DNA from: a virus
Taxonomy: Duplodnaviria; Caudoviricetes
Length of the DNA stretch: 64,000 nucleotides
Strand: one strand, 5' to 3'
Virus record (IMG/VR): IMGVR_UViG_3300025053_000003
Location: 10,716-74,715 of that record
This document shows, one piece after another, positions 5,426-48,018 of this stretch. The position numbers and the translations under genes are program-made. Each line of letters begins with the position of its first letter. Within the stretch, counting starts at the first letter, position 1. The notes under the pieces were generated by a model. It was given only the letters and a program-made list of their open reading frames with translations, had not been told where the DNA came from and made no database searches.

Positions 5426-5428
5426 ATG

Positions 5429-10347: not shown

Positions 10348-10375
10348 TTATCGGCATAATTAAGTAAAAACTTTA
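10348..10375 (-). promoter_or_regulatory. sigma-28 (FliA)-like promoter TAAAGTTT-N12-GCCGATAA
   Basis: Match to TAAAGTTT-N11-GCCGATAA consensus with one extra spacer base; faces terS. Confidence 0.65.
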
Positions 10376-10381
10376 ATTATT

Positions 10382-10570
10382 TTATTCAATATCCTCTTTA
10401 CCTTTCCAATACTTGTCGATTTGCTCCAGCGCCTTGTTGTCTTCTTGTTTATATTTCTGTATTTTACTATATCTATCCCTCAATTCTTTTGTTTTCTTTC
10501 CATCTTTTTTGTGATTACGTTTTTTACCTTTACTGAATAAATCATCTTCATCAAATTTTGTTGCGTTCAT
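10382..10570 (-). CDS. small basic hypothetical protein, first gene of the packaging operon
   Basis: ORF with GGA RBS. Confidence 0.5.
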   Translation of the reverse strand: MNATKFDEDDLFSKGKKRNHKKDGKKTKELRDRYSKIQKYKQEDNKALEQIDKYWKGKEDIE

Positions 10571-10653
10571 TCCCTTTTCCTGAAATATTTAGTTTAATTG
10601 CGTTACAGCATAATATAATCACGTTTATTAATTTGTCAAGTGATTATATTTAC

Positions 10654-10681
10654 TTATCGGCGCGGAACCGAAATAACTTTA
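10654..10681 (-). promoter_or_regulatory. sigma-28-like promoter TAAAGTTA-N12-GCCGATAA
   Basis: Consensus match at the head of the leftward operon. Confidence 0.62.
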
Positions 10682-10746
10682 ACAATTTTAGTTGATACAA
10701 CAAGGAATGCGAATAGTTGAAACAAAATGATTGAAAATAGTAGCAC

Positions 10747-10786
10747 ACGACGCATAGCGTCGTCACTTGGTTGCGTTAGCAACCAA
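10747..10786. repeat. two adjacent perfect hairpins in the divergent intergenic region
   Basis: ACGACGC-ATA-GCGTCGT (10747-10763) and TTGGTTGC-GTTA-GCAACCAA (10767-10786). Confidence 0.8.
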
Positions 10787-11032
10787 CGCTATGGTTAAGG
10801 TGTGATATTATATTTGCGTTATGTATTTAGTTGTTGAATTATGCGTGTTACGATTTTAATTTTCGTGCTATTCGCTATATTCTTTTTAGAATAAAAAGAA
10901 GTAACAGTTATTCGTAATAATTACACCTTATATAGTATAACAGTTTGGTAGACACAAAAGTCGAGAGCTATAAAAACATACCTTTGTCTATAGTAAAAGA
11001 CGTAGATGTCTATTTATTTTCACCTAACACCT

Positions 11033-11061
11033 TGACATTTTCAGGCACATGTTTTATAGTA
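11033..11061 (+). promoter_or_regulatory. sigma-70-like promoter
   Basis: TTGACA-N17-TATAGT upstream of 11114. Confidence 0.6.
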
Positions 11062-11113
11062 TCGGCTTACAAAGTGATCTCAAATTTAACAAAGGATAAA
11101 CAGGATAAACAGG

Positions 11114-11524
11114 ATGAGCAGAAACAAAGTACCACAATTTTTATCGGTTCCGATTGAACTTCATTTTAACTTAAATTTAACATCTGGGGCAAAATCATTA
11201 TTTTCTATTTTTTATTTATTCCATAATTCCGATAAGGGTTGTTACGCTGCGAACCACTATTTATCTAGAATGACTGGGTTAGACGAGAGAAGTATTACGA
11301 GAAATATTAAGCTATTGGAAGAATTAAAATATATTATAGTAAAAAATAAAAAATCAACTTCTAAAAGAAGAATCTTTATGAACAATTATAAAGAAATTTA
11401 CTTTTCTGCTGCTGAAAAAATATATTCAAATAATCGCTCTCCAGAAAAATTTAATTCAGAGGAATATAAAATTCTTTTTACTGAAGCATTAAATAATTAT
11501 ATTAATAAAAATTTAGAGGTTTAA
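11114..11524 (+). CDS. helix-turn-helix DNA-binding protein (replication-organiser-like)
   Basis: GCYAANHYLSRMTGLDERSITRNIKLLEELKYI winged-HTH pattern. Confidence 0.65.
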   Translation: MSRNKVPQFLSVPIELHFNLNLTSGAKSLFSIFYLFHNSDKGCYAANHYLSRMTGLDERSITRNIKLLEELKYIIVKNKKSTSKRRIFMNNYKEIYFSAAEKIYSNNRSPEKFNSEEYKILFTEALNNYINKNLEV

Positions 11525-11609
11525 TTTTGGTCACGAAATCTACTTCATTACCAAATGCCTATATGTTATAATTTTAATAACTTAAATAACTTAAAAACAG
11601 AGGAAAATC

Positions 11610-12446
11610 ATGAGCAATAGAAATGCAGAAGGTACTCACTTTGGATATGAAACGTATTGTGCAGAACCGGATGAAGAATATGCCTACGACAATTATAGAT
11701 TTGTCGACACCAACGAATCAATCTATAATCACAACAGGAAGTGCCCTAAATGCCAGCAGAATGAAACAACAGAAGGTCACGACCCTTGTCTCCAAAATCT
11801 TCCCGGCGTCCGTTACGCCTGTTGTTCTCACGGTAAAGGGAAAGGGTACGTTATGTTCACCGATGGGACAGTCATCAGGGGGAAGTTTAAAGTCGAAAGA
11901 GGGCAGTACCCCAACTCAACAAATCCACTAAAGCAAGAATGGGATTTAAATTATAACAAAGCACTTAGGCATTGTGAATACCACCTTGATAAAGGAAGAA
12001 GAGTAGAAGAACCTTACGAAGAAGAATTTTATAAATTACTGGATGCTTTACTTGAGACAGATGAAAATCCTTGGTCGTTTATGCCACCTGGATATGAAGA
12101 ATCATTTTCTAACCCATTTGGTTCTGACGCATTTTTAGGCGAATTATACCATTCGATGATTGACGATGGAGAAATTTGTTTTATTTCGCACGAAAATTAT
12201 AATCCTAAAATTTTATTTTTGAATATGTACTGTGATAAGAAAAGGATTGAAGAGTTCATCAAGAAGGATTATTCTGCTCATTTCAGAGCAAATGAAATTA
12301 AGGCAAAAATAGTCGATAATTATAAAGTAAAGGATTTTGAAATTCATAGTAGCGTAGATCAGTTTATTCAGGAATTAAAAATTAGACCAGTTGAACATTT
12401 AAAATTGATCAAGGAGAACGAAGAATGGATAAAATCAGTGAAATAG
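11610..12446 (+). CDS. hypothetical protein with Cys/His-rich N-terminal domain
   Basis: CPKC...GHDPC...ACCSHG. Confidence 0.6.
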   Translation: MSNRNAEGTHFGYETYCAEPDEEYAYDNYRFVDTNESIYNHNRKCPKCQQNETTEGHDPCLQNLPGVRYACCSHGKGKGYVMFTDGTVIRGKFKVERGQYPNSTNPLKQEWDLNYNKALRHCEYHLDKGRRVEEPYEEEFYKLLDALLETDENPWSFMPPGYEESFSNPFGSDAFLGELYHSMIDDGEICFISHENYNPKILFLNMYCDKKRIEEFIKKDYSAHFRANEIKAKIVDNYKVKDFEIHSSVDQFIQELKIRPVEHLKLIKENEEWIKSVK

Positions 12447-12484
12447 CCAATATCCCAAACTTACCCGATATAATCGATTCTAAA

Positions 12485-12536
12485 CGACTTTCAACCTGAA
12501 CCATAGTCAGGTATGCCCGGCACCCTGAATCGCGCT
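12485..12536 (+). repeat. dispersed intergenic element, copy 1 (inverted copy at 58852-58903)
   Basis: Core TAGTCAGGTATRCCCGGCACC 20/21 identical, plus CGACTTTCA and AATCRCGCT blocks. Confidence 0.75.
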
Positions 12537-12772
12537 AATTTAGCCGCTATACACCCTAAAATTCTGAAATTAAGAAGGAGGACTAATTGAGATTTATACT
12601 TTTCGACGAACCAGATGAAAATGGAGATAATATCAGAGTAAAATTAACCGAAGAGGAAGCAATCAAGAGACAACACCAAAGAGGGCTATTTCATAATTAC
12701 GCTTATAAAAATGACGAAGATGCTTTATCTGATTTTATAATTAATAATTGGGCATGGATTGAAGGGGAGTAA

Positions 12773-13606
12773 ATGAATAAACAACTTTTAAAACATACGC
12801 AAGACACTATCGATTGCTGGGTTGAATCATGGGGAGTTGAAAATGTCTATGTGGCCTTTTCGGGGGGGGCAGATTCGACAGTCCTTCTGGATATCGCAAG
12901 AAGATTATACCCAGAGATTAAAGCTGTATTTAATAATACAGGGTTAGAATTGCCAGAAATTGTTAGATTCGTAAAAACATTTTATAATGTAGATACTCTT
13001 TATCCTAAAATCCCTTTTCATAAAGTAATCGAAAAGTATGGTTGGCCAGTTGTTTCTAAAGAACAATCACAGTTCTTATCTGAGATAAGAACGACTAAAT
13101 CTGAAAAACTTTTAAATATTAGATTAAACGGAAATAAATACAACAGAGGAAAAGTCAGTGATAAATGGAGATTCTTAATTGACGCTCCATTTAAAATCAG
13201 TCATCAATGTTGTAATAAACTTAAAAAAGAACCAGCTAAAAGATATGAGAAAGAAACGGGAAGGCATCCTATCCTTGGTATAATGGCAGAAGAGTCTGCC
13301 TTGAGGAAGCAAGCGCACTCATGCAATGTTTACGATTCAAAGAGACCCATTAGCAAGCCATTATTCCACTGGACGAAAAAAAAGATATTTGGAATTATAT
13401 AAGAGAAAACAATGTAAAATATTGTGAAGTTTATGATAAAGGGTGGGATCGGACAGGTTGTATATTTTGTCTTTATGAGATACACAGGCAATCTTTCTAA
13501 CCTGTTAGAAAGATTGCATGAATTACATCCTAAATTATATGATTTTGTCATTAATAAATTAGGCGCAAAAGAAATTCTGGAATATATAGGAGTTAAATAT
13601 GAATAA
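12773..13606 (+). pseudogene. PAPS reductase-family protein, two frameshifts
   Basis: VAFSGGADSTVL, CCNKLKKEP; shift at A8 (13376-13383) restores DIWNYI...DRTGCIFC; second shift gives ERLHELHPKLY. Confidence 0.78.
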
Positions 13607-13982
13607 GGAGACCAGAATGTTTAATTACTTATGCAGGAAATGTAATTTAATCTTTTTATCGTCACAAGGGACAGTAGCAAATATCTGTCCTGATTGTGGT
13701 GGTGATGCAGTGAGGTAGAATAATGGAAAAGAATTATAAAATAGAACCATTTATTATTAGAGAAATAACTATTTCAAAAAATTTGGTAAAAGCCACAGAA
13801 ATTATCTTTGGAATTGTAAAAAGTATAACTGATAAACCTGTACTTGTCGGAAATCAGCGCATCTCTGGACTTTGTGAAAATGTAGTTATGGTCATTGCTA
13901 AAGGAGGAGACATCAATGGGACAACTTTTGAAATTTTTAATATTGAATTTGACAAAATATAATTAATTAAAATTAATAAAAT

Positions 13983-13992
13983 GCCGATAAGG
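13983..13992 (+). promoter_or_regulatory. sigma-28-type -10 box (GCCGATAAGG), weak -35
   Basis: Same ATGCCGATAAGG 12-mer as at 10346 and 39371; upstream of phoH. Confidence 0.45.
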
Positions 13993-14027
13993 ACAGAAAC
14001 AGTTCCTTATTAACCCCTATAGCAGAG

Positions 14028-14771
14028 GTGAAAATGGCGAAGAAATTAGTAAAGCTAATTAAACAGATAGACGAAATACAAAAAGAAACGAAAAAATCCT
14101 TCTCCCCAAAACTGAGGCCACAGGATTTAAGAGAGTTTTACCCTTTAACAAAAACCCAAGAACACTTTTACAATATCTACATGGACTCTGAGTTTACAGC
14201 ATTACATGGTGTAGCAGGGACAGGCAAAACATTTATTGCTCTGTACAAAGCATTAGAAGACGTTCTATCTAAATCAATCTTTAAAAAGATTATAATCATC
14301 AGGTCATGTGTCCAATCAAGAGACATGGGATATCTTCCTGGTGACGAAAAAGATAAAATGGACAGGTACGCTTTACCGTATAAACAAATCTGCTCCCGTC
14401 TTTTCGAGAACAAAGAAGCTTGGAATCTTTTAGAAGAAAATAATTTAATTGAATTTATGTCAACTTCTTTTCTAAGAGGAACATCTTACAACAATTCAAT
14501 AATTCTCTTGGATGAATTTCAGAATTGCAATTATGAGGAATTAGCAACTGTTATTACTAGAGTAGGAGACAATTCCAAAATCATTTTCTGCGGCGATATT
14601 AGACAGACTGATTTAAGGAAAGCAAACGACCCTTCTGGATTACGCAAATTTTTCCAGATAGCTTCTTCAGTAAATGCCTTTAATAGAATTGAATTTGGAA
14701 TTGAGGATATTTGTAGATCAGATCTTGTTAAGGAATGGATTATAGCTGAATTAGACTGGAAGGAGAAATGA
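14028..14771 (+). CDS. phoH: PhoH-family ATPase
   Basis: GVAGTGKT, FLRGTSY, ILLDEFQN, CGDIRQTD, DICRSDLVK. Confidence 0.9.
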   Translation: MKMAKKLVKLIKQIDEIQKETKKSFSPKLRPQDLREFYPLTKTQEHFYNIYMDSEFTALHGVAGTGKTFIALYKALEDVLSKSIFKKIIIIRSCVQSRDMGYLPGDEKDKMDRYALPYKQICSRLFENKEAWNLLEENNLIEFMSTSFLRGTSYNNSIILLDEFQNCNYEELATVITRVGDNSKIIFCGDIRQTDLRKANDPSGLRKFFQIASSVNAFNRIEFGIEDICRSDLVKEWIIAELDWKEK

Positions 14772-15301
14772 TGGGAGGAGAAAGGATGGAAGGAGTTAAA
14801 CATATTAATAAAATTAGAGAATATTGTGATTACGTTGAAGAGCATTTACTTAATGTAGAAAGATCATGGTTTATTCTTCAATCCACTTGTAAAGATATGC
14901 CCATAATTTATGATGATTACTGCTATTGGTATATTGATGCAATGGTTAAAAATCATGATGTCAGTAAAATGTCAACTGAAGAATTTATTCCATATCAGCG
15001 TAATTTTTACCCGGTAGATGAGAAAGACAACGCTATTTTCGGTATAGCATGGCAGCACCATTTAATACATAATCCGCACCACTGGGAAAATTGGACTAAT
15101 ATAAAAGAGAAATTTCCCAATGAGCAAGCATGTCATTGTGTATGCATGGTGATCGACTGGATGGCTATGGGTATGAAATTTGGTGACACAGCAGAAGAAT
15201 ATTATAACGCTAATAAACACAAAATAAATATACCTGGATGGTCTGTTGAATTTATAAATGAAATTTTTAAAAAGTTGAGAGACTGGAAGGAGAACAAATG
15301 A
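14768..15301 (+). CDS. HD-like (DUF5662-like) protein; intact paralog of the split gene at 53689-56598
   Basis: HDVSK...AWQHHLIHNPHHWENW...CMVIDWMAM. Confidence 0.65.
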   Translation: MMGGERMEGVKHINKIREYCDYVEEHLLNVERSWFILQSTCKDMPIIYDDYCYWYIDAMVKNHDVSKMSTEEFIPYQRNFYPVDEKDNAIFGIAWQHHLIHNPHHWENWTNIKEKFPNEQACHCVCMVIDWMAMGMKFGDTAEEYYNANKHKINIPGWSVEFINEIFKKLRDWKENK

Positions 15302-15901
15302 AAATAGTAACAGAACTGGACTTTAGAATGCCTGAATTTAAGGACGCAGACCCTAATGATTATGAATTCAGAGACGACGGGAAAATAGTCAGGAAAGACA
15401 GATGGGAACAAGGTATAAGGAATATAGCTGGTATCCTTAAATTCGATATAAGAGAAGGATTTGAAGTTGAAGACGTTATTAATTGTGTTCAGTATTTAAA
15501 GGGAACTTCTAATCCAATGCTAAAAATCCTGAAAATTGTTTATAGTGATAAAGAAGGAGAGGGTTTACACCATAATTTTAAGATTACATCCCCGCTTTCA
15601 ACTTTTGATGATACTTTAATAGTCCATGTATCATTGGATTCAGTTAATGAATTACTAGAGGCGGATTAATGAACCAACTAGATCAACGGTGCAATTTCTG
15701 CGGAAGGAGGAAATCCCAAAATCTTAAACTAACTTTCATCCAAGGTAAAACTAAATCAACTATTTGTAGTATTTGTATTAATGAATTTAAAATTAGGTTA
15801 GATTACGAAGAAGAGTTAAATATTCATAAGGATTAGAATTCAGTCGCAATTAGCTTTATTTAATGTAGTGTTTAGGGAACAGAATATAATTAAGGAGAAA
15901 G

Positions 15902-16460
15902 ATGAAAGTTTTGATAGCGTGTGAATTTAGTGGAATTATAAGAGAGGCCTTTAAAAGAAAAGGCCATGATGCTTGGAGCTGCGATTTGTTAGATACTGAG
16001 ATTTCTGGGAACCATATAATCGGTGATATTTTCCCAGTGCTGTAACAGCACTGGGATTTAATGATCTGCCATCCACCATGTACTCATTTAGCTGTTAGCG
16101 GAGCAAGGTATTTTAAAGAGAAAATTGAAAGTGGAGTCCAACAAGAGGCATTAGATTTTGTTGAATTGTTACTCGAAGCGAATATAAATAAAATATGCCT
16201 TGAAAATCCTATTAGTATTATTTCAACTAAAATAAGAAAACCAGACCAAATAATTCAACCTTGGCAATTTGGACATGGAGAAACAAAAGCAACTTGTTTA
16301 TGGCTAAAGAATTTACCTAAATTAATTCCAACAAATATAGTCGAAGGAAGAGAAGACAGAAGACAGAATACATAAAATGGCACCAAATAAAGATAGATGG
16401 AAAAATAGGAGTAGAACATATCAAGGAATTGCTGATGCTATGGCAGAACAATGGGGATAA
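15902..16460 (+). pseudogene. DNA cytosine methyltransferase (phage short type), nonsense plus frameshift
   Basis: MKVLIACEFSG...; TAA at 16043; HPPCTHL; ENP; 7-bp duplication AAGACAG at 16353-16366; restored end RSRTYQGIADAMAEQWG. Confidence 0.85.
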
Positions 16461-16800
16461 TACAATTATTGTTCTGGAAATAAAAGTTAATAATTCAATA
16501 ATCCAAACGAAGGAGGACAAAATGACAAGTATCAATTTTAAAAACGAGTTCGGAAGTTATACCATTGAAATCAATAAAGACGGAATGACAATCGATGAAG
16601 TTTTTGAAGATTTAATTACTCCAGTATTGCTCGCAGCAGGTTACTAAAGTAAAAATATTGAAGATCGGATTTGTGATGGATGCGGTTGAAATAAGTTTTA
16701 ATATTTACTCTTAAAATTTAATATATAATATTTTTGAAATAAGGAGTTGAGTTCTGGATTAGATTCTATTAAATGACCCCTATCCCCTTAGTATTACTTA

Positions 16801-16839
16801 ATGCGCTTACTTGTTAAATCAGGTGGCGCATTTTTGTTT
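16801..16839 (+). terminator. rho-independent terminator
   Basis: ATGCGC...GCGCAT stem followed by a T-rich tail at the end of the 11-16.7 kb gene run. Confidence 0.6.
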
Positions 16840-16879
16840 GTGGAGTAGTAACGTAAAAGTTGCTTAGTAACAATTGAAA

Positions 16880-16928
16880 TGTTACTTGTGTAGGAGTTGT
16901 GTTACTTGTGTAGGAGTTGTGTTACTTG
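16880..16928. repeat. 20-bp tandem repeat (GTTACTTGTGTAGGAGTTGT) x about 2.4
   Basis: Read directly. Confidence 0.8.
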
Positions 16929-17138
16929 GGTTGGGATTAAGTGTTATGAATAAATTAGAATTAATAAATTTTGGGTCGAGTATAAGAGCTTGTATCAGGT
17001 GTAATTGTTGAGAAAGTGTAGAGGGAAAAGGAAGGGTGGATTGGTGTTAGGATTTAGTTGAAAATTTTAAAATCTTAAGCGTGATACTCGACCTGCCTAA
17101 CAGGGGTATGGGGTCGCCTAAAATCGTACCGGCTATCC

Positions 17139-17233
17139 CCACGCCACCACGTCACCACGTCACCACGCCACCACGTCACCACGCCACCACGTCACCACGC
17201 CACCACGCCACCACGTCACCACGTCACCACGCC
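17139..17233. repeat. 8-bp tandem array (CCACGYCA) x about 12
   Basis: 11 full units plus 7 nt, C/T variable at position 6. Confidence 0.95.
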
Positions 17234-17333
17234 TGATCTATTTCATTTATTTTTCACTTTTACTTCTACTTCATTATTTTAAACTATTTTTATTTGTCTT
17301 TTTAAATCAGATACTTACAATAGCATTATTTAT

Positions 17334-18383
17334 TTGACTTATTGTTTTAATAGTTGTATTTTAATTTATATGATTTATTTTATTAACTCACACAAGGAGA
17401 TTATGATAATGACACAGATCACGATCAGCTACACCACATCAGTTTTCACGCCAGCGGGTTGGCGTAATGAGACAGTAACCGCAACGGTGGAGGTAATCAG
17501 TCCAAAACGGGGGCGTGTGCTATGCGTCCAAGATATTGGCGGTAATGGCAACTCCGGTTATGGTAGCCGGACCGGGGCAAAGCGGCAAGCATATCACGTG
17601 GGAGGGATTGCTATGCGGGAGCAAGGCAAAATCAAAAACCTATCAGCTTGTTGTATACTCTAACACTAACGCATCATTGCCTATAATCCGGCAAAGGATT
17701 GTTATCTTTGCCGCACCGGAAAAACTCAAGAGGTGTTCTGGGCCGATGAATTGGCGGACTTCTACAATTAAACTACTACTACAATAAAGGAAAGGTGATG
17801 AACCTGAAAAATACACAATGGGGAATAGCTACGGAATATACAAAAGATATTTTACCCGGAGCTATTCTGGAAAAGATTATTCGTGGGCCTGTTTCCGGTG
17901 CCATTCACGAGTTTACAATCTGCTATGTTTGGGGCAGATATATCCCGGTTCATGGCATGGTAAAAATGGCCCCTTGTGATACAGAAAAACAGGCAAAGAG
18001 GGTGTTAAAAAACTATTGGGATAATTTGAAGGATAACGAAAAATGACAATCAAATTACTTGTATACCGGCTGTTATGCGCATTGGCAATAGTTGCCACCT
18101 TGAGTATAGATATATAAGAGGGGAAAGTATGAAAATAAAATCAGAGCATTACCAATACATGAAAAACGCGATAATTGAAAAGCATAAATTCATGCTTGAA
18201 AATCATAAAACTGATTATATAAAGTACAGGAATGCTGGCCACTCAAAGGAGCTGATCTTATGGGATCTACTACATGCTTCTGGTTTAACTCCTTGGGTAT
18301 GTTCAATGCTATACTTGGATAAAAAGGATTCGCATATTGAAACGGCTTTAAAGTCAATCTGGCAAGATATCCGCATGGATTGA
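17334..18383 (+). CDS. cluster of three small hypothetical genes (17334-17663, 17795-18046, 18075-18383; true starts probably internal)
   Basis: ORF track; AAGGAG/GAGG RBSs. Confidence 0.55.
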
Positions 18384-18969
18384 AAATAAGCACTACAGTC
18401 AATTTTAAGCCGTGTTCAGGCCTTGCCATAGAAAGGTATACCTTAAGCTCTAATCAGGGCAAGGTGACGCCATAGAACGCTAAATTTCAAGGGATAAAAC
18501 TATGCAAGCAATAGGATACTACAATCTCGGTTTGGGGGTGGGGATGGTCAAAAAGCTGGTGTGTTGGGTTGGGGGGGCGAAGAAAGAAAACTACGCGTTT
18601 TGTTTTTCTGGTGGAAAAATTCGGTTCTTATGTTTGGTTTGGTGTTGGGGGGGTGTTGTATTGAAATAGCTTAATATCGCCTTATACAATTTTATATCGC
18701 CCTATATCACTTCCCTTTAATACCAAGGGAATACGGGCAATCATGCATAAAAACAGGCAAGAAAAACTCACTTGTACATAAGATATTTCTCAAAAATAGT
18801 ATATTATAACTACTTGATAATATAAGGAAAGTGAGTAAATTCAAGAGAATAGGCGATATAAAGAGATAATTATAATTTACCTTCCACCAATAAAACCGTC
18901 TATATGCTCAGGGCAATGCTTTTCCAGATATAGCAATAAGACTTCCAGAATTGAGAAAGGGCAGGCGTA

Positions 18970-19049
18970 GGGTGCAAGGGTGCAAGGGTGCAAGGGTGCA
19001 AGGGTGCAAGGGTGCAAGGGTGCAAGGGTGCAAGGGTGCAAGGGTGCAA
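18970..19049. repeat. 8-bp tandem array (GGGTGCAA) x10
   Basis: 10 perfect units. Confidence 0.95.
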
Positions 19050-19532
19050 GGTTTGTTTCAATTAATTCTTTTAATTCTTTTAATTTGAGAAAAGGGGTTG
19101 AGTAAAACAGGAAACGCCATACGTATGGCCCAACCTATACAGTATACCCTATACAGCTTATTTGCTAAACAATTAAAAGTCTAATCCTAACAAAAGATAT
19201 TAACAACAACACGTACGCAATAACGTACTACTTTTTACACGTACGGAAAATCGTACGCATGAATTTACCTATTCCAGAAAAACAATTTTTAGGATTTTTC
19301 TAATTGTATAACTTTATCCTTTACATTAGTTCAAATTATTTGTATTATCTATTTAACAGTTGAGATCAAGAAGTTATTAACTCAAAACACAAGAGGCCAA
19401 AAAATGGGTATATAACAAAAGGTAATAAAATGTTTTAAATTATCAAAAATAAATCTTGTATAATTAGAAAATCATTTATATAAAGAATCATCGAAGTTAA
19501 GTTTTACAAAATATCAAAAAGGAGAAAAGATC

Positions 19533-20519
19533 ATGGCCGCAAATATGGATCTTCAGCTTTTTGCTTCAAAAAATGCCGCTGCATGGTGGTGGAATGATTC
19601 TATGGAAAACCATGTATTCCCCAACGCCACTAACCGGGAGCTGTTTGAGTTGAGCAAAGCAGACTTTCCGGTTGAAATTGTTCCGATTTTCAAAAAAGAC
19701 GGTTCCGAAATTCCCGGCTATTTTATCCTGGAAAATACCAGAACGGGGGCAGCGTTGAGGATGGCAAAGAGTCGTTTTCAGGCCTTGCAAAGTGAAACGC
19801 TTTTTGAGAAACTGGACCAGCTTGGAAACATTACCGATATCGGGGCCATCGGTCAAGGCGAAAAGGTGTTCTTCTCTCTTGATGCCGGTCAATTTGAGAT
19901 AGGGGAAGGTAATACCCATAAACAATTTATTAATGCAGTTCTTCCCCATGACGGAACAATGAAGATTACGCTAGGTTTAGGCGATTTCAGGATCGAGTGT
20001 CAAAACACCTTTAATCTTTGGAAACGGTCACTTGATAGTACTGAAATATTAGCTTGTAAGCAGACTGCCAACGCAGAGGCGAAAATTGACGGCTGGGTCA
20101 AGGCATTCCAGGAAATGCAAGCCGAAAATGAGACATTGAAAGAGAAATTCAAGCGACTGGCAAGCATGAAATTTTCCGCTGAAAGTCAAGCCGGGATCAT
20201 TGGCAAGTTGTTTGGCGGAGACAAAGACAAGCCGTCAACCAGGAGCATTAATACACAAAAGATGCTGGCGGAAATCATCGCCGATAATGCAAGTAATGTG
20301 AGCCAGGATGTCCGGGGCACTGGTTACGATCTTTTTAACGGCCTAACGTACTGGACTAGCCGGGGAATGGGACTCAAGGCAAACACCTCAGCACTGGAGT
20401 CCGTCATGTTTGGAAGTGGCCAGAAGTTGGCGGAAACGGCTCTAAATTTGATTCTGGAAAGTATCCCGGATGGTATCATACCGAACCGTGAAAACCTTGT
20501 CAGAACGATAACCGTGTAG
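19533..20519 (+). CDS. DUF932/DUF945-like phage/plasmid protein
   Basis: PHDG...RIECQNT, GTGYDLFNGLTYW, SVMFGSG. Confidence 0.7.
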   Translation: MAANMDLQLFASKNAAAWWWNDSMENHVFPNATNRELFELSKADFPVEIVPIFKKDGSEIPGYFILENTRTGAALRMAKSRFQALQSETLFEKLDQLGNITDIGAIGQGEKVFFSLDAGQFEIGEGNTHKQFINAVLPHDGTMKITLGLGDFRIECQNTFNLWKRSLDSTEILACKQTANAEAKIDGWVKAFQEMQAENETLKEKFKRLASMKFSAESQAGIIGKLFGGDKDKPSTRSINTQKMLAEIIADNASNVSQDVRGTGYDLFNGLTYWTSRGMGLKANTSALESVMFGSGQKLAETALNLILESIPDGIIPNRENLVRTITV

Positions 20520-20900
20520 GTTAATTTGTTGATTGCTTGAGCCGGTAAGGAATAAAGGAAACTTTACCGGCTTTCTGGAATTAATAAACATCAAAACACC
20601 AACTCAAGAGGCTAAAAAAATGGACGAAATCAAATGGATAAAAAGTCCCTTCTACCAGGCAAGAATTCGCTGTGAAGATATTTGGGTAAGGACAATAGGT
20701 TTTTGTCCTGCAAAAAATTGGTATTTGTGCCGGAGCGGGAAAGAGAAAGAAATCTTTTTCGCTGATGAATTGGTAGAATTTTGTGAATAGGTGAAAAGAT
20801 GCTAAAATATTGGTTGAAAAATTTTGGGATTGCTGGTTTAATTATTTCTGGTTTTTACGTTTTCTTTTTATTAATTTATGTTATTTTTTGAGGTGAAAAG

Positions 20901-23285: not shown

Positions 23286-23314
23286 TTGACAAAGACGAAA
23301 ATATTTAATAAAAT
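23286..23314 (+). promoter_or_regulatory. sigma-70-like early promoter; related copies at 25026-25054, 27716-27744, 28866-28894
   Basis: TTGnnn-N17-TAAnnT in all four, with a shared AWWWTTAR just before the -10. Confidence 0.65.
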
Positions 23315-24791: not shown

Positions 24792-25738
24792 GGGGAAAAT
24801 ATGAAAAGGACCATTTACCTTCCATCAATTTCCAGAAGTGTCACTCTAAGGGAATACAATCAAGCAATTAAACTAGCTAAGAAAAATCCTGATGTTGAGT
24901 TCAAGTATGGCCTTTCTTGTTGGTGGCCGTGTTCAGGAAGGGAGATTATGCGTCAATTCTTTGACGGACTTCAAGACCGGATCAATAGTAAAATTCCCTA
25001 TATACAGAGAGGGATAAAATAATTGTTGCAATTAGGTCAAATTATTAGTAAGATGTGTTTGCGATGAAGAAAAATCTTCCAGGAGGCGGGAAATGTGGCA
25101 GACAAAAGTTTTCAAGACCAAAAAAAAGATGCTTGCTTTCCTGGAGAAAAATCAGAATATCCAGCACCAGGAAATTTTCGTGAATAACGCTTACGGGATC
25201 GAGTACCGGAAACTCAACAAAGTATATTGAAAGGTCAAAACATGAACCAAATCGAAGCAGTGACCAAAGCTAAGGAGTCAGCCGAAACTCTTGTAAACGA
25301 TCTAAGAGAAGCGGTTAGGGGTGAGAATTTTCTCCTTTCTCATATGGTTTGAACTGAAACAAATCGAAAATCTAATTGAAACAAATTAAAGGGAGAAAAC
25401 AAAATGACGATTGACAAGATCATGGGTATGAAAAATCAGGAATTCGCAAAAACCGTCAAGAGCTTCCAGGATGCTTGTGAAAAGGCTGGAATTCCGCCTA
25501 CGAAGCGGCAGGCAAGCAAATGGCGGAATAAGAAGGGGATAGCTTTCTTGGGGAAGAAATAAATATGAAAACGCCACAAGATGTCGGGAGGTTCAGGATC
25601 GGGATTATCAAGAAAATGATGAAGGGAGACTTGCCACCAGAACAAGCCATCAATATTCAGAAAATGACAGACAGGGAATTGTTGCATTTAATTAGAAGTA
25701 ATCAAGAAACAAACTAAAACAAATTAAGAGGTAGCAAA

Positions 25739-28854: not shown

Positions 28855-28897
28855 TCGCTTTAGTGTTGACTTGATTGTTAATAATTAGTAAAGTGAA

Positions 28898-36159: not shown

Positions 36160-36333
36160 TTTTTATTGCCTGAGAAGGAATCAAAATGAAAACATGCCAG
36201 AACGACCACCAGATGATTGTTTTCGATTCAGAAAAATGTCCACTCTGCAAAGCTCTTGACGAAATCAGTAATCTTGAGGACATGTTAAAAGAAGCCGAAG
36301 ATCTAAATAAGAATTTAGGAACAGTTACGCCAG

Positions 36334-39217: not shown

Positions 39218-39303
39218 GCCGCCTTAGTTCAGTTGGTAGAACACCTGATAAATGACTTTATGTAATCAGGTTGTCGTGGGTTCGATTCCTACAGGCGGCT
39301 CCA
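39218..39303 (+). tRNA. tRNA-Thr(UGU)-like gene with a 17-nt anticodon loop (10-nt insertion), encoded CCA
   Basis: Acceptor GCCGCCT/AGGCGGC, D-stem GTTC/GAAC, anticodon stem CCTGA/TCAGG, T-loop TTCGATT; 86 nt. Confidence 0.8.
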
Positions 39304-39353
39304 GAAAAGATAGTTGTAAATATAAAAAAGTTTGTCTTAGAGTTAAATAACCT

Positions 39354-39380
39354 TAAAGTTTTCTGAAATTATGCCGATAA
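39354..39380 (+). promoter_or_regulatory. sigma-28 promoter, exact consensus TAAAGTTT-N11-GCCGATAA
   Basis: Read directly; 18 bp upstream of the XRE gene ATG. Confidence 0.75.
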
Positions 39381-39398
39381 GGTATAAGGAGGAAGTCA

Positions 39399-39578
39399 AT
39401 GACCGGCGAAGAAATGGATGTTATTAGAAAGAAGAAAGGTTGGAACAAAATAGAATTGTCAAAAAGATTAGGACTGAGCAATATCACAATTAGTAAATAT
39501 ATTAACAACAAATCTCAAATTCCTAAATTGGTTGAAATAGCTATGAATAATTATGAAAGGGAGTGTAAGGAGGAGTAG
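39399..39578 (+). CDS. XRE/Cro-like HTH regulator (59 aa)
   Basis: Not in ORF track; MTGEEMDVIRKKKGWNKIELSKRLGLSNITISKYINN; AGGAGG RBS. Confidence 0.75.
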   Translation: MTGEEMDVIRKKKGWNKIELSKRLGLSNITISKYINNKSQIPKLVEIAMNNYERECKEE

Positions 39579-41087
39579 ATGAACACAGATAACAAGAAAG
39601 CGAAGAATGTATTCCCAGATGCAAGAAATTGCTCTGTTAAAAATAATTATACACAAATATCTAACAATTTAATTAGGGATAAAAGGCTTTCTTATAAAGC
39701 AAGAGGAATCCTAATTCTTTTATTGAGCCACCAAGAAGGGTGGGTTTCTATTATGGAAACGCTATGCGATAATTTTAGCGAACCTGATGGGAGAACTTCT
39801 GTTGAAAGTGGAATGAAAGAATTAGAAAAATTTGGATACTTAGATAAAAAGATATTTAAGAAAAAAGGAAATCAAACCATAGTTGGGTCTTTCATAGCAT
39901 ACACAGATGTGCCATTTACTTTTAATTTTGAAGGGCATAAAAAATTTGCAGATGATAGCGGATGGGAAATAGGAGACCATCCGCAAAGGAAGAATATGAG
40001 TATTGGAAACCCTGCGATGGAAAAGCCATCGGCGGAAAACCCATCGGCGGAAAACCCTGCGATGGAAAATCAACAGCTAATAATACCAATAAATAATAAT
40101 ACCAATTATAATAACACTAATTTTAATAAATCTTTTTCTTACGAAAAAGAAGTTATAGATTCTGACGAATCTATTGAACCTCATTCACAACATGTTGAGT
40201 CAACTGTTTGTCCCGTCACTGAACAAGAACATAATACAGTTGCTCAAACAAGCGTAGCGCCAGACACTGTTGAACAAAATAATATTAATGTTCCGCCGCC
40301 CCGCCCGACAAGAACACTGAAGAACCCAATTTACGCGACCCCGAAACCTACCCCTAAAATAAAAAAGAATATTGTTTCGCTGATTGATTATTGGAACAGT
40401 CTTAAAATAGTCCAACACCGAGCAGGAACAAAAACTTATAATGAAATTGCGATTTGTTTAAATAAACTCATGGCGGGTAAATTCTTTGATAAAAATGGTC
40501 CTTTCAAAAAGTATGCTGATTATAAATTCACAGAACAAGAAATTACCAACACAATGAATAGGTTCTCCTTGGCCGCTACTGATTTTAATTATGAACCTAC
40601 GAATGGGTATAAGAAAACGCTCAAAGGAACGGGCATTGTGCATTTTCTGCATAATCCTTTCGGGGAGAAAGAAAAATCATTATTCCTGGAATACTTTGAA
40701 AATGAACCTGTTGCAGTAAAAGAAACAATGCGAATGATTGAAGACATTGATTCTAACATGACTGAAATCATTAAAGATGTCTGGGTAAAAAAAGTGATGA
40801 ATAAATATGTTCCAAAGAGTTATTCAAAAAATGATGAAAATAATTTCAGACGAGCGACAAAAGAATTTCATCGCTGGTTCAATGAAAATAACAAAAGAAT
40901 CCATCCTCAGTTCGGGACAAGGGGAGCAGATGCTCAATCAAAAAGGAAAAGAGTTGAACTATTTGTTGAAATGCTTTTAAAAACAACATTGACTACAAGT
41001 AAGATTCAGATCAGTTGGCTTTGTTCTTCTTATAATTGGGAACATGCGTTCCCGAAGTGGTGTAACGACCAGGGTATTATGAATTGA
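39579..41087 (+). CDS. phage replication initiator/replisome organiser
   Basis: IRDKRLSYKARGILILLLS HTH; internal PxxENP repeats. Confidence 0.75.
   Translation: MNTDNKKAKNVFPDARNCSVKNNYTQISNNLIRDKRLSYKARGILILLLSHQEGWVSIMETLCDNFSEPDGRTSVESGMKELEKFGYLDKKIFKKKGNQTIVGSFIAYTDVPFTFNFEGHKKFADDSGWEIGDHPQRKNMSIGNPAMEKPSAENPSAENPAMENQQLIIPINNNTNYNNTNFNKSFSYEKEVIDSDESIEPHSQHVESTVCPVTEQEHNTVAQTSVAPDTVEQNNINVPPPRPTRTLKNPIYATPKPTPKIKKNIVSLIDYWNSLKIVQHRAGTKTYNEIAICLNKLMAGKFFDKNGPFKKYADYKFTEQEITNTMNRFSLAATDFNYEPTNGYKKTLKGTGIVHFLHNPFGEKEKSLFLEYFENEPVAVKETMRMIEDIDSNMTEIIKDVWVKKVMNKYVPKSYSKNDENNFRRATKEFHRWFNENNKRIHPQFGTRGADAQSKRKRVELFVEMLLKTTLTTSKIQISWLCSSYNWEHAFPKWCNDQGIMN
40005..40135. repeat. candidate origin: four 14-15-bp iterons plus AT-rich tract
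   Basis: GGAAA(A)CCCTGCGAT / GGAAAASCCATCGGC units at 40005-40071, then an A/T-rich stretch. Confidence 0.6.
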
Positions 41088-42519: not shown

Positions 42520-42732
42520 ATGTTAAACTACAAGGGGTATACCGGCACTGGACGGGTAAATACTGAAACACTTCTCCTTCGAGGAGAAGTGGATGACGTT
42601 GATCTTTACACTCCTTATTCTGGTGTAACAGTATTTGAATTGACAACTAATTTCCGTTTAGCAGTTGATGAATTTATTACGGGGAGAACATTTGCTGGAG
42701 TTGCTAAACCTGAGGTGGGAAGATGTTCTTAA
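42520..42732 (+). CDS. HicB-like antitoxin domain (solo)
   Basis: MLNYKGYTG...GEV...GVTVFELTTNFRLAVDEFI resembles the HicB N-terminal pattern. Confidence 0.55.
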   Translation: MLNYKGYTGTGRVNTETLLLRGEVDDVDLYTPYSGVTVFELTTNFRLAVDEFITGRTFAGVAKPEVGRCS

Positions 42733-43310
42733 ATGTTTCAAATTGGATTATAATTGGGTACATAATTTTCGGAGCAATTATGGGATTCAGATTGATCCCA
42801 ATGGCAAAAACAAAAACAGAAAGGATACTAACCCTCATAGTTAGTGGTCCTGTTATTTGGGTTTTGTTTAGTTTTTATTATATTCGTGAAGTAGTAAAGA
42901 AAATAAAAGAGGTGTATTAAAATGAAATTGACTCAAGTTTGCAGATGTGGAGAAGAAATCTCATTTGAATTAGCTACTGACGAAATTCTGTCAAGTTTGG
43001 CTAAATGGTTCATAACAGAAAAATTAAAAGCATCTGGGTGGGAGGTCACTAAACGAGATATTCTTTGTCCTGATTGTTTACTTTCTATAAAAGAAGATGA
43101 AAAGTTTGACGAGAAATATGCAAGGCAGATTAAAGAAACTGATGATTATGACTATTTAAGATTCGCAACAGATCATATCAGAAAATTTGGTGCAGGGGCC
43201 ACGATTTAAGCTGTTTTCAGTCGTTACTGTATTGGGTATTTAAAAAGGTCTAATCGCGGCTTAGTGAGCGCAGGGAACGGTAAATTTAGGTATCTGGGAG
43301 AAGAGAGTAA

Positions 43311-44915
43311 ATGAAAATAGCAAAACTTGTCCGAAAATTAAAAGATAACGACCAGGATATGGAGTTCTACCCGACTTCTGACAAAATTATATCCATTATC
43401 AAAACAAAGTTAAATTCAGAACACGAATCAATCCTTGATTGTGGTGCTGGGAATGGAGCAACGCTATCTAAGCTAACACAAGGGAAGAAATATGCCATTG
43501 AGAAGAGCCAGATTCTCGTAAAAGAAATGCCATCTGATATCTTTATTATAGGGTGTGATTTTTACGAGAACGTCCTGATAGATAAGAAAGTTGATGTCGT
43601 ATTCTGTAATCCTCCTTATTCTGAATATAAGGAATGGGCAATAAAGATTATCAATGAAGCTAATGCAGCTAAGATTTTTCTTGTTATTCCTGATCGCTGG
43701 AAGAATCAACCAGAAATCTTAGCTACGATTAAAGACCGCGAAGCGAAATACAATATTATTGGGAACACCGATTTCCTTGATGCAGAGCGGGCAGCAAGGT
43801 GTAACGTAGACATCATCGAAATTCTATTAACCAGCTCAAGTTATCACAGCAGGAATTCAACTCCCGATGTTGACCCTTTCTTTTTGTGGGTTCAGAAGGA
43901 ATTTCCTATTAATACAAGGAAAGAAGATAAAGCAGAGTATAAGGATTTTTCTAAGAAGATCAATGAACTTGTCCCAGTTAGGGGCTTAATTCTCGCTTTG
44001 GTTGAATTGTACAACGATGACCTTTTTAAACTCCAGTTAAACTTCAAAGCAATCTCCGAATTAGATCAATCTATATTCAATGAACTCCAAATTGATTTTA
44101 AATCAGTCGTAAATTTACTGCAAAGGAGGATTATTGGCTTAAAGGAAAAGTATTGGCGGGAACTATTTAAAAATCTCAATACAATCACCGATAGGCTAAC
44201 AAAGAAAAGCAGAGAAAAATTGCTAAAAACACTAACGGATAATATAAGTGTTGACTTTCAGGAGTCAAATATTTATAGTGTTGTCATCTGGGCGATCAAA
44301 AATGCTAATAGCTATTTCGATTCTCAATTAATTGATGTTTTTATGGATTTGTCCGATAAGGCTAATTTGGTTCTGTATAAATCGAATCAGAGTACATGGG
44401 GAAAAGATAAGTGGCGGTTCAGGGAGGAGATGAGGGAAGGAAAGATAAAGAATTTTGGATTGGATTATAGATGTGTAATTTCTTGTCATAATACTTTTAA
44501 CCCATCCTCTTATGGGCGTTATGAATATGAAAATGGCATTCACAATAGTGTGAATTCAAGGCTGAATGATATTTTGACCATCGCCCACAATTTGTCCTTT
44601 CTCACAACCTCATCAGAAAAGTCAGATCAGAAACAATGGGAGCCGGGAAAAGAGCAAATTTTCTTGATGAATGATGGTGAAATACTAATGTCAGTTAGAG
44701 TATACATGAATGGCAATTTGCATATTAAGTTCAATCAGAAATTTCTGAGAAATCTTAACGTCGAATTCGGGCGATTAAAAGGCTGGCTCAGAAGTAGTTC
44801 CGAAGCTTCAGAAGAATTAAATATCCCGGAGGAAGAAGCTAAGATGTATTTTAAGACTAATTATGTTTTGGAAGGATCAAGTTTGCCAATGTTAGAATAC
44901 AGGGAGGCAATATGA
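43311..44915 (+). CDS. SAM-dependent N6-adenine methyltransferase with DUF4942-like C-terminus
   Basis: QDMEFYPT, ILDCGAGNG, FCNPPYS, YMNGNLHIKF. Confidence 0.8.
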   Translation: MKIAKLVRKLKDNDQDMEFYPTSDKIISIIKTKLNSEHESILDCGAGNGATLSKLTQGKKYAIEKSQILVKEMPSDIFIIGCDFYENVLIDKKVDVVFCNPPYSEYKEWAIKIINEANAAKIFLVIPDRWKNQPEILATIKDREAKYNIIGNTDFLDAERAARCNVDIIEILLTSSSYHSRNSTPDVDPFFLWVQKEFPINTRKEDKAEYKDFSKKINELVPVRGLILALVELYNDDLFKLQLNFKAISELDQSIFNELQIDFKSVVNLLQRRIIGLKEKYWRELFKNLNTITDRLTKKSREKLLKTLTDNISVDFQESNIYSVVIWAIKNANSYFDSQLIDVFMDLSDKANLVLYKSNQSTWGKDKWRFREEMREGKIKNFGLDYRCVISCHNTFNPSSYGRYEYENGIHNSVNSRLNDILTIAHNLSFLTTSSEKSDQKQWEPGKEQIFLMNDGEILMSVRVYMNGNLHIKFNQKFLRNLNVEFGRLKGWLRSSSEASEELNIPEEEAKMYFKTNYVLEGSSLPMLEYREAI

Positions 44916-46767
44916 GAATTATGTTGGGAAATTCGACGGGAAGAGATCTGAAGAAACTTTCATTTATTTAGATCGGGATGAAGCGTTAATGATTATTCAG
45001 AATCTTGCAGAAAAATCAAGATACATTAATTCTGGATCATTTGAGATTAATGATACAAATAGTGGCGAAACTTTTTCTGTATTTGTCCATGAAGAATGTG
45101 ACGGTCTATAAGGAGATAATATGAAAGGGTCATACATGGAAGAGAACGAAATGAAACAGCTCGAAGAATTGTTGAGTCATTCACTTAAGGATACTATGAG
45201 CTGTTGGGTAGCGACTAGAATTAATGGAGCAAGTGCATCTATGGCTTGCGATGGCAATGTTTGTATTCCTCTCATTAAAGCATTCGATACTATCTCAAAT
45301 AAAATTAAGGAGAACTAAAATGACCCAGAAAGACCGAGATTTCAATGATAGTGCTAACGTATTTGGAAGTAGTTTTTTTGATGTAATATTCGGAAGTCCT
45401 AATATGTCATATGCAGATCCACAAGATAAGACAATGAACAACATTATTATTAAATACATTCGCAAGAAGGACAATACACCAATCGCTTGCCTGATTGCGG
45501 TAAAGATCAATGATGAAGTAAAAATCGGGTGGAGTATGTTTCACTCAAAGGAGGAGGTCATTCCCTTCAGCAAAGAGAAAGCTAAGAAACTTGCCCTGAG
45601 TAGAGCGAGAAACTCTGATCTCTATACTGAGCACCTTGAGTATAATCAAAAGTGGAAGGAATACTCCAGCACGATTGTTCCTAATTTTCCTTCTTCCTTG
45701 AAAAGCGAAATGGAAATGTTTATGGAGCGGGCAAGGAGGTATTTTGATGTAGAACACATTCAGAACTATTCCTGTTGTAAAATGCATAATAAGAAGGATT
45801 GTTTGTATGGTGATAATGGTGGAATTCTTATCCCTAATAAATTTTTTACCGGCAAAGGATTGTTTGTTAAAGATAAATCCTCTTTAATTTGGGGTGGAAT
45901 AAATAATGATTAATTACATAACAATAAATAAGCCAATGCAGTATATCGAATCAGTTACTTGTGATATTTGCAAAACAGAATATAAACACACAGACTCATA
46001 TGATATGGAAATTCAAGAATTCCTCCATATTGATTTTATTGGTGGTTATAGTTCAATTTTCGGTGACGGTTCTTTCGTTAGAGGAAATATTTGCCAATAT
46101 TGCCTCCAGAAGAAACTCGGAGAATTTTTGAGAATCGGAGACCCAGAAGATGAATAACATCTATCCAGTTCTGGAAAATCTCGAAGAAGATCGCTATCAT
46201 GAATCAGATATTATTGCTTTTAGTCTAAAGTACTTAAAAAATTATCTCGATACTGGTCATGAATTGGTATCGAGAAATTATACAATTAATCAAATTAAAG
46301 AAATTTTCGAGAATTACGAACCTTACTTTGAAGAAGGAGAACAAAATGAAATCAAGAACAATGTGGTTGACCTTCATAGTAGCATTGTGGTTTGTGATTC
46401 TAATATCACTACTATGGCTCAGTAGAGATGTTAAGGCTTCAGAATTTCAAGCGGCTAAGTTGCTTGACTGTCAAGCTATAATCGTTGATGAATCATTTAT
46501 CCCTAAGGGAACCAAAACTCATGATGTTATTTGCTTTTGGAAGGTCGAAGTAAGCGGCAGAAATGTGATAATGTGGAAAAAAGTGGGGTCAAAAGAATGT
46601 GGTTTTTTATATGAATAAGAATAAAGAATTACTAATTTTCGGGATCATTTTTTATGTTATAATTACAATCGGATTTATCCAAGCAGAAAGAAAAGCCGAT
46701 AAACTTAAAGATCAAGTACAATCTCTTACCAATGAACTCGATAACCTTGACTTTTAATAGTCATAAA

Positions 46768-47952
46768 TCATTGATATGATTCACTTTGTTCGTTAAAGGA
46801 ACTATAAATGCCTCTATTGTGAATATTAATTGCGCCATTTGTATCGGCGTCAATTAACAACCCACAAGACGTACATTGATAAGTTTCACCACGACGGTTC
46901 GACTTATCAATGATGCCACAACCTGAACAGGTCTGGGATGTATATGCTGGATCGACGGATAGAAGAAAGAAACCTTCCTCTTCAGACCGTAAAGCCAGCT
47001 TCGCCAGAACCTGTTTGTAAGACCAATATTGAAGTTTATTATTGAATTTGGTTGAGAACTTTGACTTATGTTTTACGTTTTTGAGATCTTCTACCACGAC
47101 GAGACTGTATGGGTCAAGATTAATTGAATTTACTATTTGATTAGTGAGATTCTTTTTGTATTGTAATAATCGTTTATGGCTTTTTGAACCTCTCCGCTTG
47201 TTGGCTAATTTGATATAAACCTGTTTAAGCTCTTCCCCATAATGAACGCCATTAGAATCTGAAATTAATTTATTGTAACCACAATCAAGGCCAATGGATT
47301 TACCTTGTTGTTTAACTTGACATTTTTCTTTTTCATAAATTAACGTAATATAAAAGTTGCCATTAATTTTATTTAATTGGATTGTATTTTTGCGTGTCCA
47401 ATCTTTGAATTTTAAGCTGTGTTTATGTTGTTTGATAGGGACGTTGATATTGAGGTATTTTCTTTCAAACCCTTCAATTTTATAAGGAGTATATATTCTG
47501 ATAAACGAGTCGAATAAATTACTTTCTTTGATATTAAATAAGTGGGAGCTTAAATTTATTGAAACGGTTTTTATATCAATTTTAATACGTTTTAAGTAGT
47601 TGATACTTAATTCTGAATATTTCTTATTCAAGAATGGTTTATGAATATTCTGCTCTTTACATTTAGCATATAATTTCTGGTATCGTTTAAATGTTTTATT
47701 TTTAGTGTGTTTAAGATTTGACCGAACGATGCCAGAAGCTGTTCTGTAAGCTATCCCTTTCCAGTCAGCGTGGCATATAACATTGTTCGGGAGTAATTTA
47801 CAAGATACATTTGTCTTCAGAGGGAGATCACCCTTAAGAATTAAATCAATATACAAAATTACACAGCTCTTGAAATCCTCATAAATCCTTTCGAGGACAT
47901 CAAGCTTGTGTTTATTTGCGAATTTAAGGGTGTGTTTGGAAACTCTGATCAT
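46768..47952 (-). mobile_element. tnpB: solo TnpB (IS200/IS605/IS607-type RNA-guided nuclease), no tnpA
   Basis: RuvC motifs GLDCG, VVEDL, DADTNGAINI; zinc finger CSGCG...CTSCG. Confidence 0.88.
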
Positions 47953-47991
47953 ATTATTATTGACTTGTGTTGAATTAGTTGTTATAGTACC

Positions 47992-48018
47992 TTATCGGTA
48001 TAAATTCGTAAAACTTTA
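47992..48018 (-). promoter_or_regulatory. sigma-28-like promoter TAAAGTTT-N11-ACCGATAA driving tnpB
   Basis: One mismatch to consensus; about 40 bp upstream of the tnpB ATG. Confidence 0.65.

Follow-up and report, generated by a model that had tools for sequence, protein, structure and literature searches.

Why would a tailed phage carry what look like flagellar promoters ahead of its packaging, replication and tnpB genes, and which sigma factor would read them? The question is raised by a stretch of 64,000 nucleotides, hereafter the window, that comprises bases 10716-74715 of the 74,715-bp IMG/VR virus contig IMGVR_UViG_3300025053_000003 (G000), in which a two-box motif recurs that resembles the promoters of the sigma-28 family (FliA/SigD/WhiG). 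The phage is an uncultured one from groundwater, its G+C content is 37%, and CheckV estimates the contig to be 58% complete. A leftward block carries terS, terL, portal, a gene for a prohead protease-AAA+ fusion and the major capsid gene, and a long rightward block contains replication and nucleotide-metabolism genes (a DnaD-like protein, PhoH, helicases, a replication initiator, DnaB, a primase and others). No nucleotide match was found among 50,697 phage records, and a comparison by TerL returned no close cultured relative, the best match being Salinibacter phages at 31% identity. The answer favoured here, at a probability of roughly 0.55, is that the sites are sigma-28-class promoters read by the FliA holoenzyme of the host.

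Number, position and identity of the sites

The original prediction had described four intergenic, correctly oriented copies of the motif ahead of the terS-terL-portal operon, an XRE-initiator pair and tnpB, and had recognized in them the consensus of FliA/SigD. The window contains exactly four matches to TAAAGTTW-N11/12-RCCGATAA, at 10348-10375(-), 10654-10681(-), 39354-39380(+) and 47992-48018(-), all of them intergenic and oriented with the next start codon, which follows at 37, 83, 18 and 39 nt, respectively. Dinucleotide shuffles yield a mean of 0.01 matches and none of 100 shuffles reaches four, so that this part of the prediction stands as made. A fifth exact copy (site E) lies inside coding sequence at contig positions 9883-9910 (-), 805-832 nt to the left of the window. 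A sixth full site precedes a small gene on the metagenome contig Ga0209518_1000564 (47.3 kb), which matches the right end of the window at 99.5% identity and extends it by ~43 kb further rightward; the analysis covered 10 kb of this extension.

A genome-wide matrix scan had also been proposed with the prediction, and it was run over the whole 74.7-kb contig with a two-block position-weight matrix built from 37 sites. Five sites stand out: A, C, D and E score 41-45 bits and B scores 22 bits, compared with 13 bits for the next best match and a shuffle maximum of 11.4, and no further site above chance was found in the contig. Site B has a GC-rich spacer and TAAAGTTA. The weak intragenic match at 44333-44359 (13 bits) does not exceed chance and was dropped. 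The candidate promoters of the window, with their matrix scores, are as follows.

10348..10375, minus strand: candidate promoter A, proximal, TAAAGTTT-N12-GCCGATAA then GG; exact match, 42.7 bits
10654..10681, minus strand: candidate promoter B, distal, TAAAGTTA-N12-GCCGATAA, in a 544-nt divergent intergenic region; exact match, 22 bits
39354..39380, plus strand: candidate promoter C, TAAAGTTT-N11-GCCGATAA then GG, 18 nt before the XRE gene; exact match, 43.2 bits
47992..48018, minus strand: candidate promoter D, TAAAGTTT-N11-ACCGATAA then GG, 39 nt before tnpB; exact match, 41.3 bits
13982..13992, plus strand: extended -10 box TGCCGATAAGG, an 11-mer, 42 nt before the phoH start codon; exact, fails the two-box matrix

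The sites of the window, the contig and the extension conform to the consensus boxes TAAAGTTT and GCCGATAA with spacers of 11 or 12 nt, and additional bases are conserved beyond the canonical boxes, namely a T before the -35 box and GG(T) after the -10 box. All five sites of G000 are co-oriented with the downstream gene. They cover the late operon, the XRE-initiator pair and tnpB, and most of the rightward genes are without a site. The -10-only copy that had been noted before phoH is real as a sequence, TGCCGATAAGG being an exact copy without a -35 box; the 11-mer occurs four times in the contig where 0.01 occurrences are expected. Its -35 position reads TAATTAAA, and since no -35 box is recognizable there, it is at best a weak site, possibly a weak promoter of the sigma-28 type.

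The FliA consensus has been published as TAAAGTTT-N11-GCCGATAA (PMC7286023). In their identical boxes and in their spacing of 11-12 nt the phage sites are like class 3 flagellar promoters (those of FliA in E. coli, Salmonella and Pseudomonas, of SigD in B. subtilis and of WhiG in Streptomyces), from which they differ in preceding packaging, capsid, replication-initiator, XRE and TnpB genes. As a control, the 18-base pattern was scanned in bacteria with one genome per species, which gave at least 120 loci, and the first open reading frame (ORF) was determined after 112 sites. Among the matches listed, this first ORF most often encodes FlgM (9), a flagellin N-terminal domain (4) or FliD (4), and methyl-accepting chemotaxis proteins (2) and EAL proteins (2) occur as well. 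Since the pattern precedes classic members of the FliA regulon in bacteria, the assignment to the sigma-28 promoter class is sound, and the FliA/SigD consensus named at the outset is upheld both by the published FliA/SigD/WhiG consensus and by this control. As far as sequence can tell, the sites are very probably sigma-28-class promoters. A sigma-28-like site of the genome G363 that resembles promoter A was dropped, the ORF downstream of it having no Pfam match.

Conservation of the sites among related phages

When IMG/VR was scanned with TAAAGTTT-N11/12-GCCGATAAGG, 47 loci were obtained, several contigs being matched repeatedly. The phages behind them fall into two groups. Group I comprises true relatives of G000: G001 (144.5 kb, terL 53% identical), G003 (81 kb, terL 57% identical), G007 (113 kb) and several shorter fragments, with G008 and G009 appearing to be variants of the G007 phage. 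G001 (IMG/VR 3300014205_000181) is identical to JBAYVI010000001.1, a contig of the Melioribacteraceae metagenome-assembled genome (MAG) G006. These relatives, whose completeness is rated at 81-86%, align to G000 over only ~3-10 kb and at ~68-72% nucleotide identity (~70% over ~10 kb for G001). Relaxed site counts for G000, G001, G003 and G007 are 5, 15, 7 and 6, compared with 0.1-0.2 in shuffles. G001 shares with G000 the clade, the consensus, the positions of the sites and the lack of a detected sigma factor; it represents a different lineage and has 15 sites rather than 5 or 6. Group II (G002, G004 and G005; 42% G+C) is unrelated and uses the same boxes at 10, 3 and 7 sites. Of the 53 sites in the seven phage genomes of both groups, 50 point in the direction of the gene that follows (p = 5.5e-12) and 42 are intergenic. 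When hexamers were ranked by their enrichment in 251 upstream regions of Group I, only the Shine-Dalgarno sequence came ahead of CCGATA, CGATAA and GATAAG, all of them parts of the -10 box.

Across the lineages terS is preceded by a tandem pair, the capsid gene and tnpB by one site each, and small XRE genes by sites as well, all at conserved positions. Promoter A, which lies 37 nt upstream of the ATG at 10310, has counterparts in G001 (25284), G003 (34275) and G007 (93808), and the tandem distal site upstream of terS likewise recurs in G001 (23864), G003 (35133) and G007 (94537). The genes that follow the sites of the window are given below, where core families are those present in at least three of the four lineages. 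The identities proposed earlier for terS, terL, portal, XRE, the initiator, tnpB and phoH all agree with the PHROG or Pfam matches.

10382..10570, minus strand: 62-aa ORF, the first after promoter B, from the ORF list; no PHROG or Pfam match
10134..10310, minus strand: 58-aa ORF, the first gene after promoter A and head of terS-terL-portal; core family 32, G001 homologue 39% identical
9473..10078, minus strand: terminase small subunit (phrog_51, E 3e-20)
6769..8337, minus strand: terminase large subunit (phrog_2, E 7e-20), 53-57% identical to the G001 and G003 proteins
4040..5425, minus strand: portal protein (phrog_12, E 4e-48)
1..1311, minus strand: N-terminal part of the prohead protease-AAA+ fusion, 844 aa; the 3' part of the gene is outside the window
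39399..39578, plus strand: XRE/Cro-type helix-turn-helix (HTH) protein, 59 aa (PF01381, E 2e-7)
39579..41087, plus strand: replication initiation protein, 502 aa, abutting the XRE gene (phrog_4707, E 3e-22)
46768..47952, minus strand: TnpB with a Cas12f1-like TNB domain (PF07282, E 3e-18), 72% identical to the G003 copy
14034..14771, plus strand: PhoH-like ATPase gene (phrog_170, E 3e-76)

The strongest single argument for the predicted function of the sites is the embedded one. In G000, site E is embedded where the protease-AAA gene encodes its AAA lid and precedes the major capsid gene by 550 nt, and a capsid-upstream site within coding sequence is found in four lineages (G000, G001, G003 and G007). 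The coding sequence is homologous in G000, G001 and G007, where the boxes are translated as Leu-Lys-Phe (TTA AAG TTT) and Ala-Asp-Lys (GCC GAT AAG) and the four residues between them vary (FVDY, FTEN and FIKD, respectively); from the codon usage of each genome, the chance of finding the six box codons is 2-3e-3 per lineage. The corresponding site of G003 (25323-25350, L063) likewise precedes the capsid gene by a few hundred nt and has the same boxes, down to the codons, in a protein without homology to the AAA lid; this context argues that the promoter tracks the capsid gene and not the protein whose coding sequence contains it. Site E is separated from the capsid gene by a GC-rich hairpin (GGGAGG ... 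CCTCCC) at L003:9445-9485 (contig, minus strand), which directly follows the protease-AAA stop codon and may serve in termination, attenuation or processing. Further along, at contig 8038-8045 (minus strand) and thus to the left of the window, CCCGATAAG occurs in the intergenic stretch that follows the capsid gene, at a distance of 64 nt from the HNH endonuclease gene downstream, and may be one more -10-only site.

The recurrence of the motif before XRE genes leads to a different explanation, according to which it would be the binding site or operator of a phage DNA-binding protein, for example a small XRE protein, its likeness to sigma-28 promoters being coincidental. Small XRE HTH genes do directly follow the motif, both in G000 (39399) and in G001, where sites precede XRE homologues at 3404, 18184 and 80751, and the conservation beyond the canonical boxes (the T before TAAAG and the GG(T) after GATAA) would suit an operator. 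However, all 16 canonical positions match the FliA consensus with canonical spacing of 11-12 nt, and the asymmetric motif lacks the dyad symmetry that is usual for the binding sites of XRE dimers. The strict orientation at 13-40 nt before start codons, the presence of the same consensus in an unrelated phage group and the occurrence of this pattern before flgM, fliC and fliD in bacteria also speak for promoters, and an operator is therefore considered improbable. Near promoter C, an 86-nt tRNA-like gene (window 39218-39303) ends ~50 nt upstream of the site; it is called as tRNA-His by ARAGORN, with the anticodon atg at position 35.

Promoter D and tnpB point leftward and are thus inverted relative to the surrounding rightward gene block. 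The homology between the tnpB regions of G000 (window 46500-48100) and G003 (55700-58100) amounts to 74% over 1130 nt followed by 83 nt at 88%, and it starts 5 nt upstream of the -35 box of D, the flanks further upstream being unrelated. Judging from this boundary, the TnpB unit seems to carry a sigma-28-type promoter along as its left-hand border. Could the sites then be copies of a short mobile or recombining promoter cassette, most of them functionless? Besides the position of D at the very edge of its unit, this would fit the XRE-gene copies of G001, which have a near-identical promoter-plus-leader (3404, 80751 and 141110). On the other hand, the five sites of G000 differ in spacers and flanks and have only the two boxes in common, they share neither extended flanking homology nor target-site duplications, their positions recur across lineages, and the embedded site shows a constrained choice of synonymous codons. 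A cassette origin with little function is for these reasons judged very improbable, the least probable of the explanations discussed.

Search for a phage-encoded sigma factor

Textbook phages either keep the housekeeping sigma factor of the host or bring their own, as in the phage-encoded sigma switches of B. subtilis phage SPO1 (gp28 and gp33/34) and of T4 (gp55). The sites under discussion are like those switches in that a uniform, information-rich promoter class marks the late-gene blocks of a large phage, and the original prediction had accordingly allowed for a sigma-28-like factor encoded outside the window as one of two options, the other being a tie between phage development and the host motility regulon. 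Under the former option the promoters would be read by a phage sigma factor, either FliA/WhiG-like and located in unsequenced DNA or too divergent to be recognized, and they would form a classical middle/late switch.

A search of the full 74.7 kb of G000 with the models Sigma70_r2, r4 and r4_2 matched nothing but a generic HTH with which an exonuclease-like protein begins. This protein (408 aa, window 1750-2976, phrog_284) weakly matches sigma-70 region 4 and PucR HTH models with its N-terminal HTH; it was considered as a sigma factor and rejected, as it is not one. Sigma70_r2 and TIGR02937 found nothing in G001, G003, G007, G008 and G009, nor did TIGR02937 alone in G010 and G011. Searches by phmmer --max with seven sigma queries (FliA, RpoD and four further sigma-family proteins of the MAG G006, and the sigma of G002 described below) against all six-frame ORFs of at least 60 aa gave no match. 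When the 48 core families were compared with a sigma profile by hhalign, the best result (23%) was an XRE HTH aligned to region 4.2 and no sigma factor emerged, and the PHROG and Pfam annotation of the core proteins contains no transcription factor beyond XRE. No sigma gene was detected in the 10 kb read of the extension, and no FlgM homologue was found in these phages. Unlike SPO1 and T4, G000 and three other lineages of its clade thus have no sigma gene that could be found when it was sought.

A divergent sigma-70-family ORF was detected in the unrelated phage G002 (TIGR02937, E 3e-9; L051:1021-2016, corresponding to G002 115710-116705), and since the same searches picked up a sigma factor as divergent as this one, their sensitivity is reasonable. 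The protein resembles RpoD more than FliA, RpoD providing its best PDB matches and FliA following at E 0.13, and Group I contains no homologue of it. The match to the sigma model continues in frame across a TAA stop and reaches region 4, which may point to a split or truncated gene; an alternative genetic code as the reason for the stop was rejected, because code 11 gives 93% ORF coverage. G002 also has a second recurrent upstream motif, TTAATCTTA, which is ~19-fold enriched in upstream regions and occurs at about nine intergenic places (e.g. 61500, 68835, 79445 and 126917), and which could be the target of the phage's own sigma factor.

How does the option of a phage sigma factor fare on this evidence? 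It draws on the incompleteness of G000 (only ~58%, with at least 43 kb more in existence and 10 kb of that read), on the co-occurrence of the same boxes with a divergent sigma-70-family protein in G002, and on the unusual uniformity of the boxes, which is typical of phage-specific promoter classes. Against it, four clade lineages (>410 kb) gave no match by hidden Markov model, phmmer and profile-profile searches that are able to detect the G002 sigma, an essential late sigma should be a core gene and 0 of 48 core families resemble one, and the G002 sigma is not FliA-like and lacks a homologue in the clade. A sigma-28-like factor encoded outside the window was encountered neither in the other 10.7 kb of the contig nor in the 10-kb extension nor in the three related lineages, which weakens the claim while ~33 kb stay unread, and we regard a phage-encoded reader as less likely than host FliA, yet as its main and serious rival. 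Of the two options of the original prediction, we infer that the link to the host motility regulon is now the better one.

Host FliA as the proposed reader

The lack of a detectable sigma factor in the phage and its relatives, together with two sigma-70-like promoter candidates heading the divergent early region, makes a mechanism based on the host polymerase the most likely one. The two candidates are these.

10612..10639, minus strand: sigma-70-like promoter candidate TTGACA-16-TATATT, just downstream of B; consensus match only, 11/12 positions
11032..11060, plus strand: sigma-70-like promoter candidate TTGACA-17-TATAGT, before the early/replication block from 11114; consensus match only, 11/12 positions

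The sigma-28 consensus is conserved across phyla, and as the unrelated Group II uses the same consensus, a shared, universally conserved host factor would be a simpler explanation than convergent phage sigmas. In the proposed mechanism, the boxes would be functional sigma-28 (FliA/SigD/WhiG) promoters that form a small regulon conserved across a clade of large uncultured phages. Early genes would be read by the sigma-70 RNA polymerase of the host, and the sigma-28 sites by host RNA polymerase with host FliA. Three promoters would drive the leftward late operon, B and A ahead of terS-terL-portal and E ahead of the major capsid gene, one further promoter would drive the XRE-initiator pair and another tnpB, which would tie the making of virions to motile cells, in which FliA has been released by its anti-sigma factor. 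That the sites are transcribed, that transcripts start ~7 nt after the -10 box and which sigma factor reads them is what we infer from the sequences. A bolder version, held tentatively and at somewhat less than even odds, is that the large lytic phages of a whole sigma-less clade (genomes of ~80 to 145 kb or more) have placed packaging and capsid genes under the flagellar sigma factor of the host, so that virions would be made only in motile, FlgM-free cells.

Candidate hosts are suggested by the MAGs in which clade contigs were binned. The Melioribacteraceae MAG G006, which holds the G001 contig, encodes a 210-aa FliA/WhiG-type sigma factor beside a MinD/FlhG-like ATPase, and its flagellin gene has TAAACTTT-N11-TACGATAA ~100 nt upstream. 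A 7-kb clade fragment (L089) was binned with the 'Erysipelotrichaceae UBA6182' MAG G412, which has a flagellin and a FliA-like gene, its flagellin promoter reading about TAAG-N15-ACGATAT. Both candidate hosts thus encode a flagellin and a FliA-type sigma. The RpoD proteins of the two MAGs are only 46% identical, which places them in different phyla and means that at least one binning is wrong. Strict boxes in G006 were considered and discarded: 16 of 43 lie on the phage contig, and the rest are near control level and precede housekeeping genes. A CRISPR comparison of window positions 1-20000 with 401 genomes of the class of the Melioribacteraceae MAG returned only the phage contig and short low-complexity matches, and no repeat arrays flank the latter. 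As for TnpB, one of 301 genomes of that class matched, at 32% identity. To judge from the TTGACA/TATAAT candidates of the sigma-70 type and from the strong Shine-Dalgarno sites, the host may well use canonical signals.

Several observations weigh against reading by host FliA. G002, which uses the same boxes, encodes a divergent sigma factor, and with G000 ~58% complete, ~33 kb of the extension unread and the relatives at 81-86%, a phage sigma could hide in the missing DNA. The terminator-like hairpin separates the embedded promoter E from the capsid gene that it would serve. The two MAG bins that hold clade contigs conflict in phylum, and neither the CRISPR nor the TnpB comparison yielded a host link; moreover, the flagellin promoters of G006 and G412, the candidate hosts, deviate more from the ideal consensus than the phage boxes do. 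Finally, the timing of late genes needs extra control if host FliA is present from the start of infection.

If reading by host FliA is correct, the productivity of the phage would be linked to cell behaviour, that is, to whether the cell is swimming or sessile, which bears on the interplay between phages, biofilms and motility in aquifers. The motile-state wiring could match a flagellum-dependent adsorption, with a phage PilZ protein acting on the motor, and even the resident TnpB element would carry the same promoter at its edge. Near-perfect and portable sigma-28 promoters would furthermore be a practical tool, and their sequence a signature for finding such phages. A full-text literature search brought up no description of sigma-28-type promoters in a lytic phage. 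Among the precedents that it gave for the use of a host alternative sigma factor, the closest is S. aureus, whose sigma-H is reported to drive prophage int genes (PMC2869324). The two cases are alike in that a host alternative sigma factor, and not the housekeeping one, is proposed to read phage genes, and they differ in that sigma-H acts on the integrase of a temperate prophage, whereas sigma-28 would act here on the virion and packaging operon of a large phage in which no integrase is seen.

The window also encodes a stand-alone PilZ-domain protein (52841-53272; PF07238, E 2e-10), and a PilZ receptor of cyclic di-GMP in a phage with flagellar-type promoters is suggestive of a link to motility. 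Beyond the right end of the window, the 10 kb of the extension add a DNA polymerase III alpha-uracil-DNA glycosylase fusion, followed by a Dam methylase and an ATP-dependent DNA ligase.

Extension L276:5903-9268: DNA polymerase III alpha fused to a uracil-DNA glycosylase domain, 1121 aa

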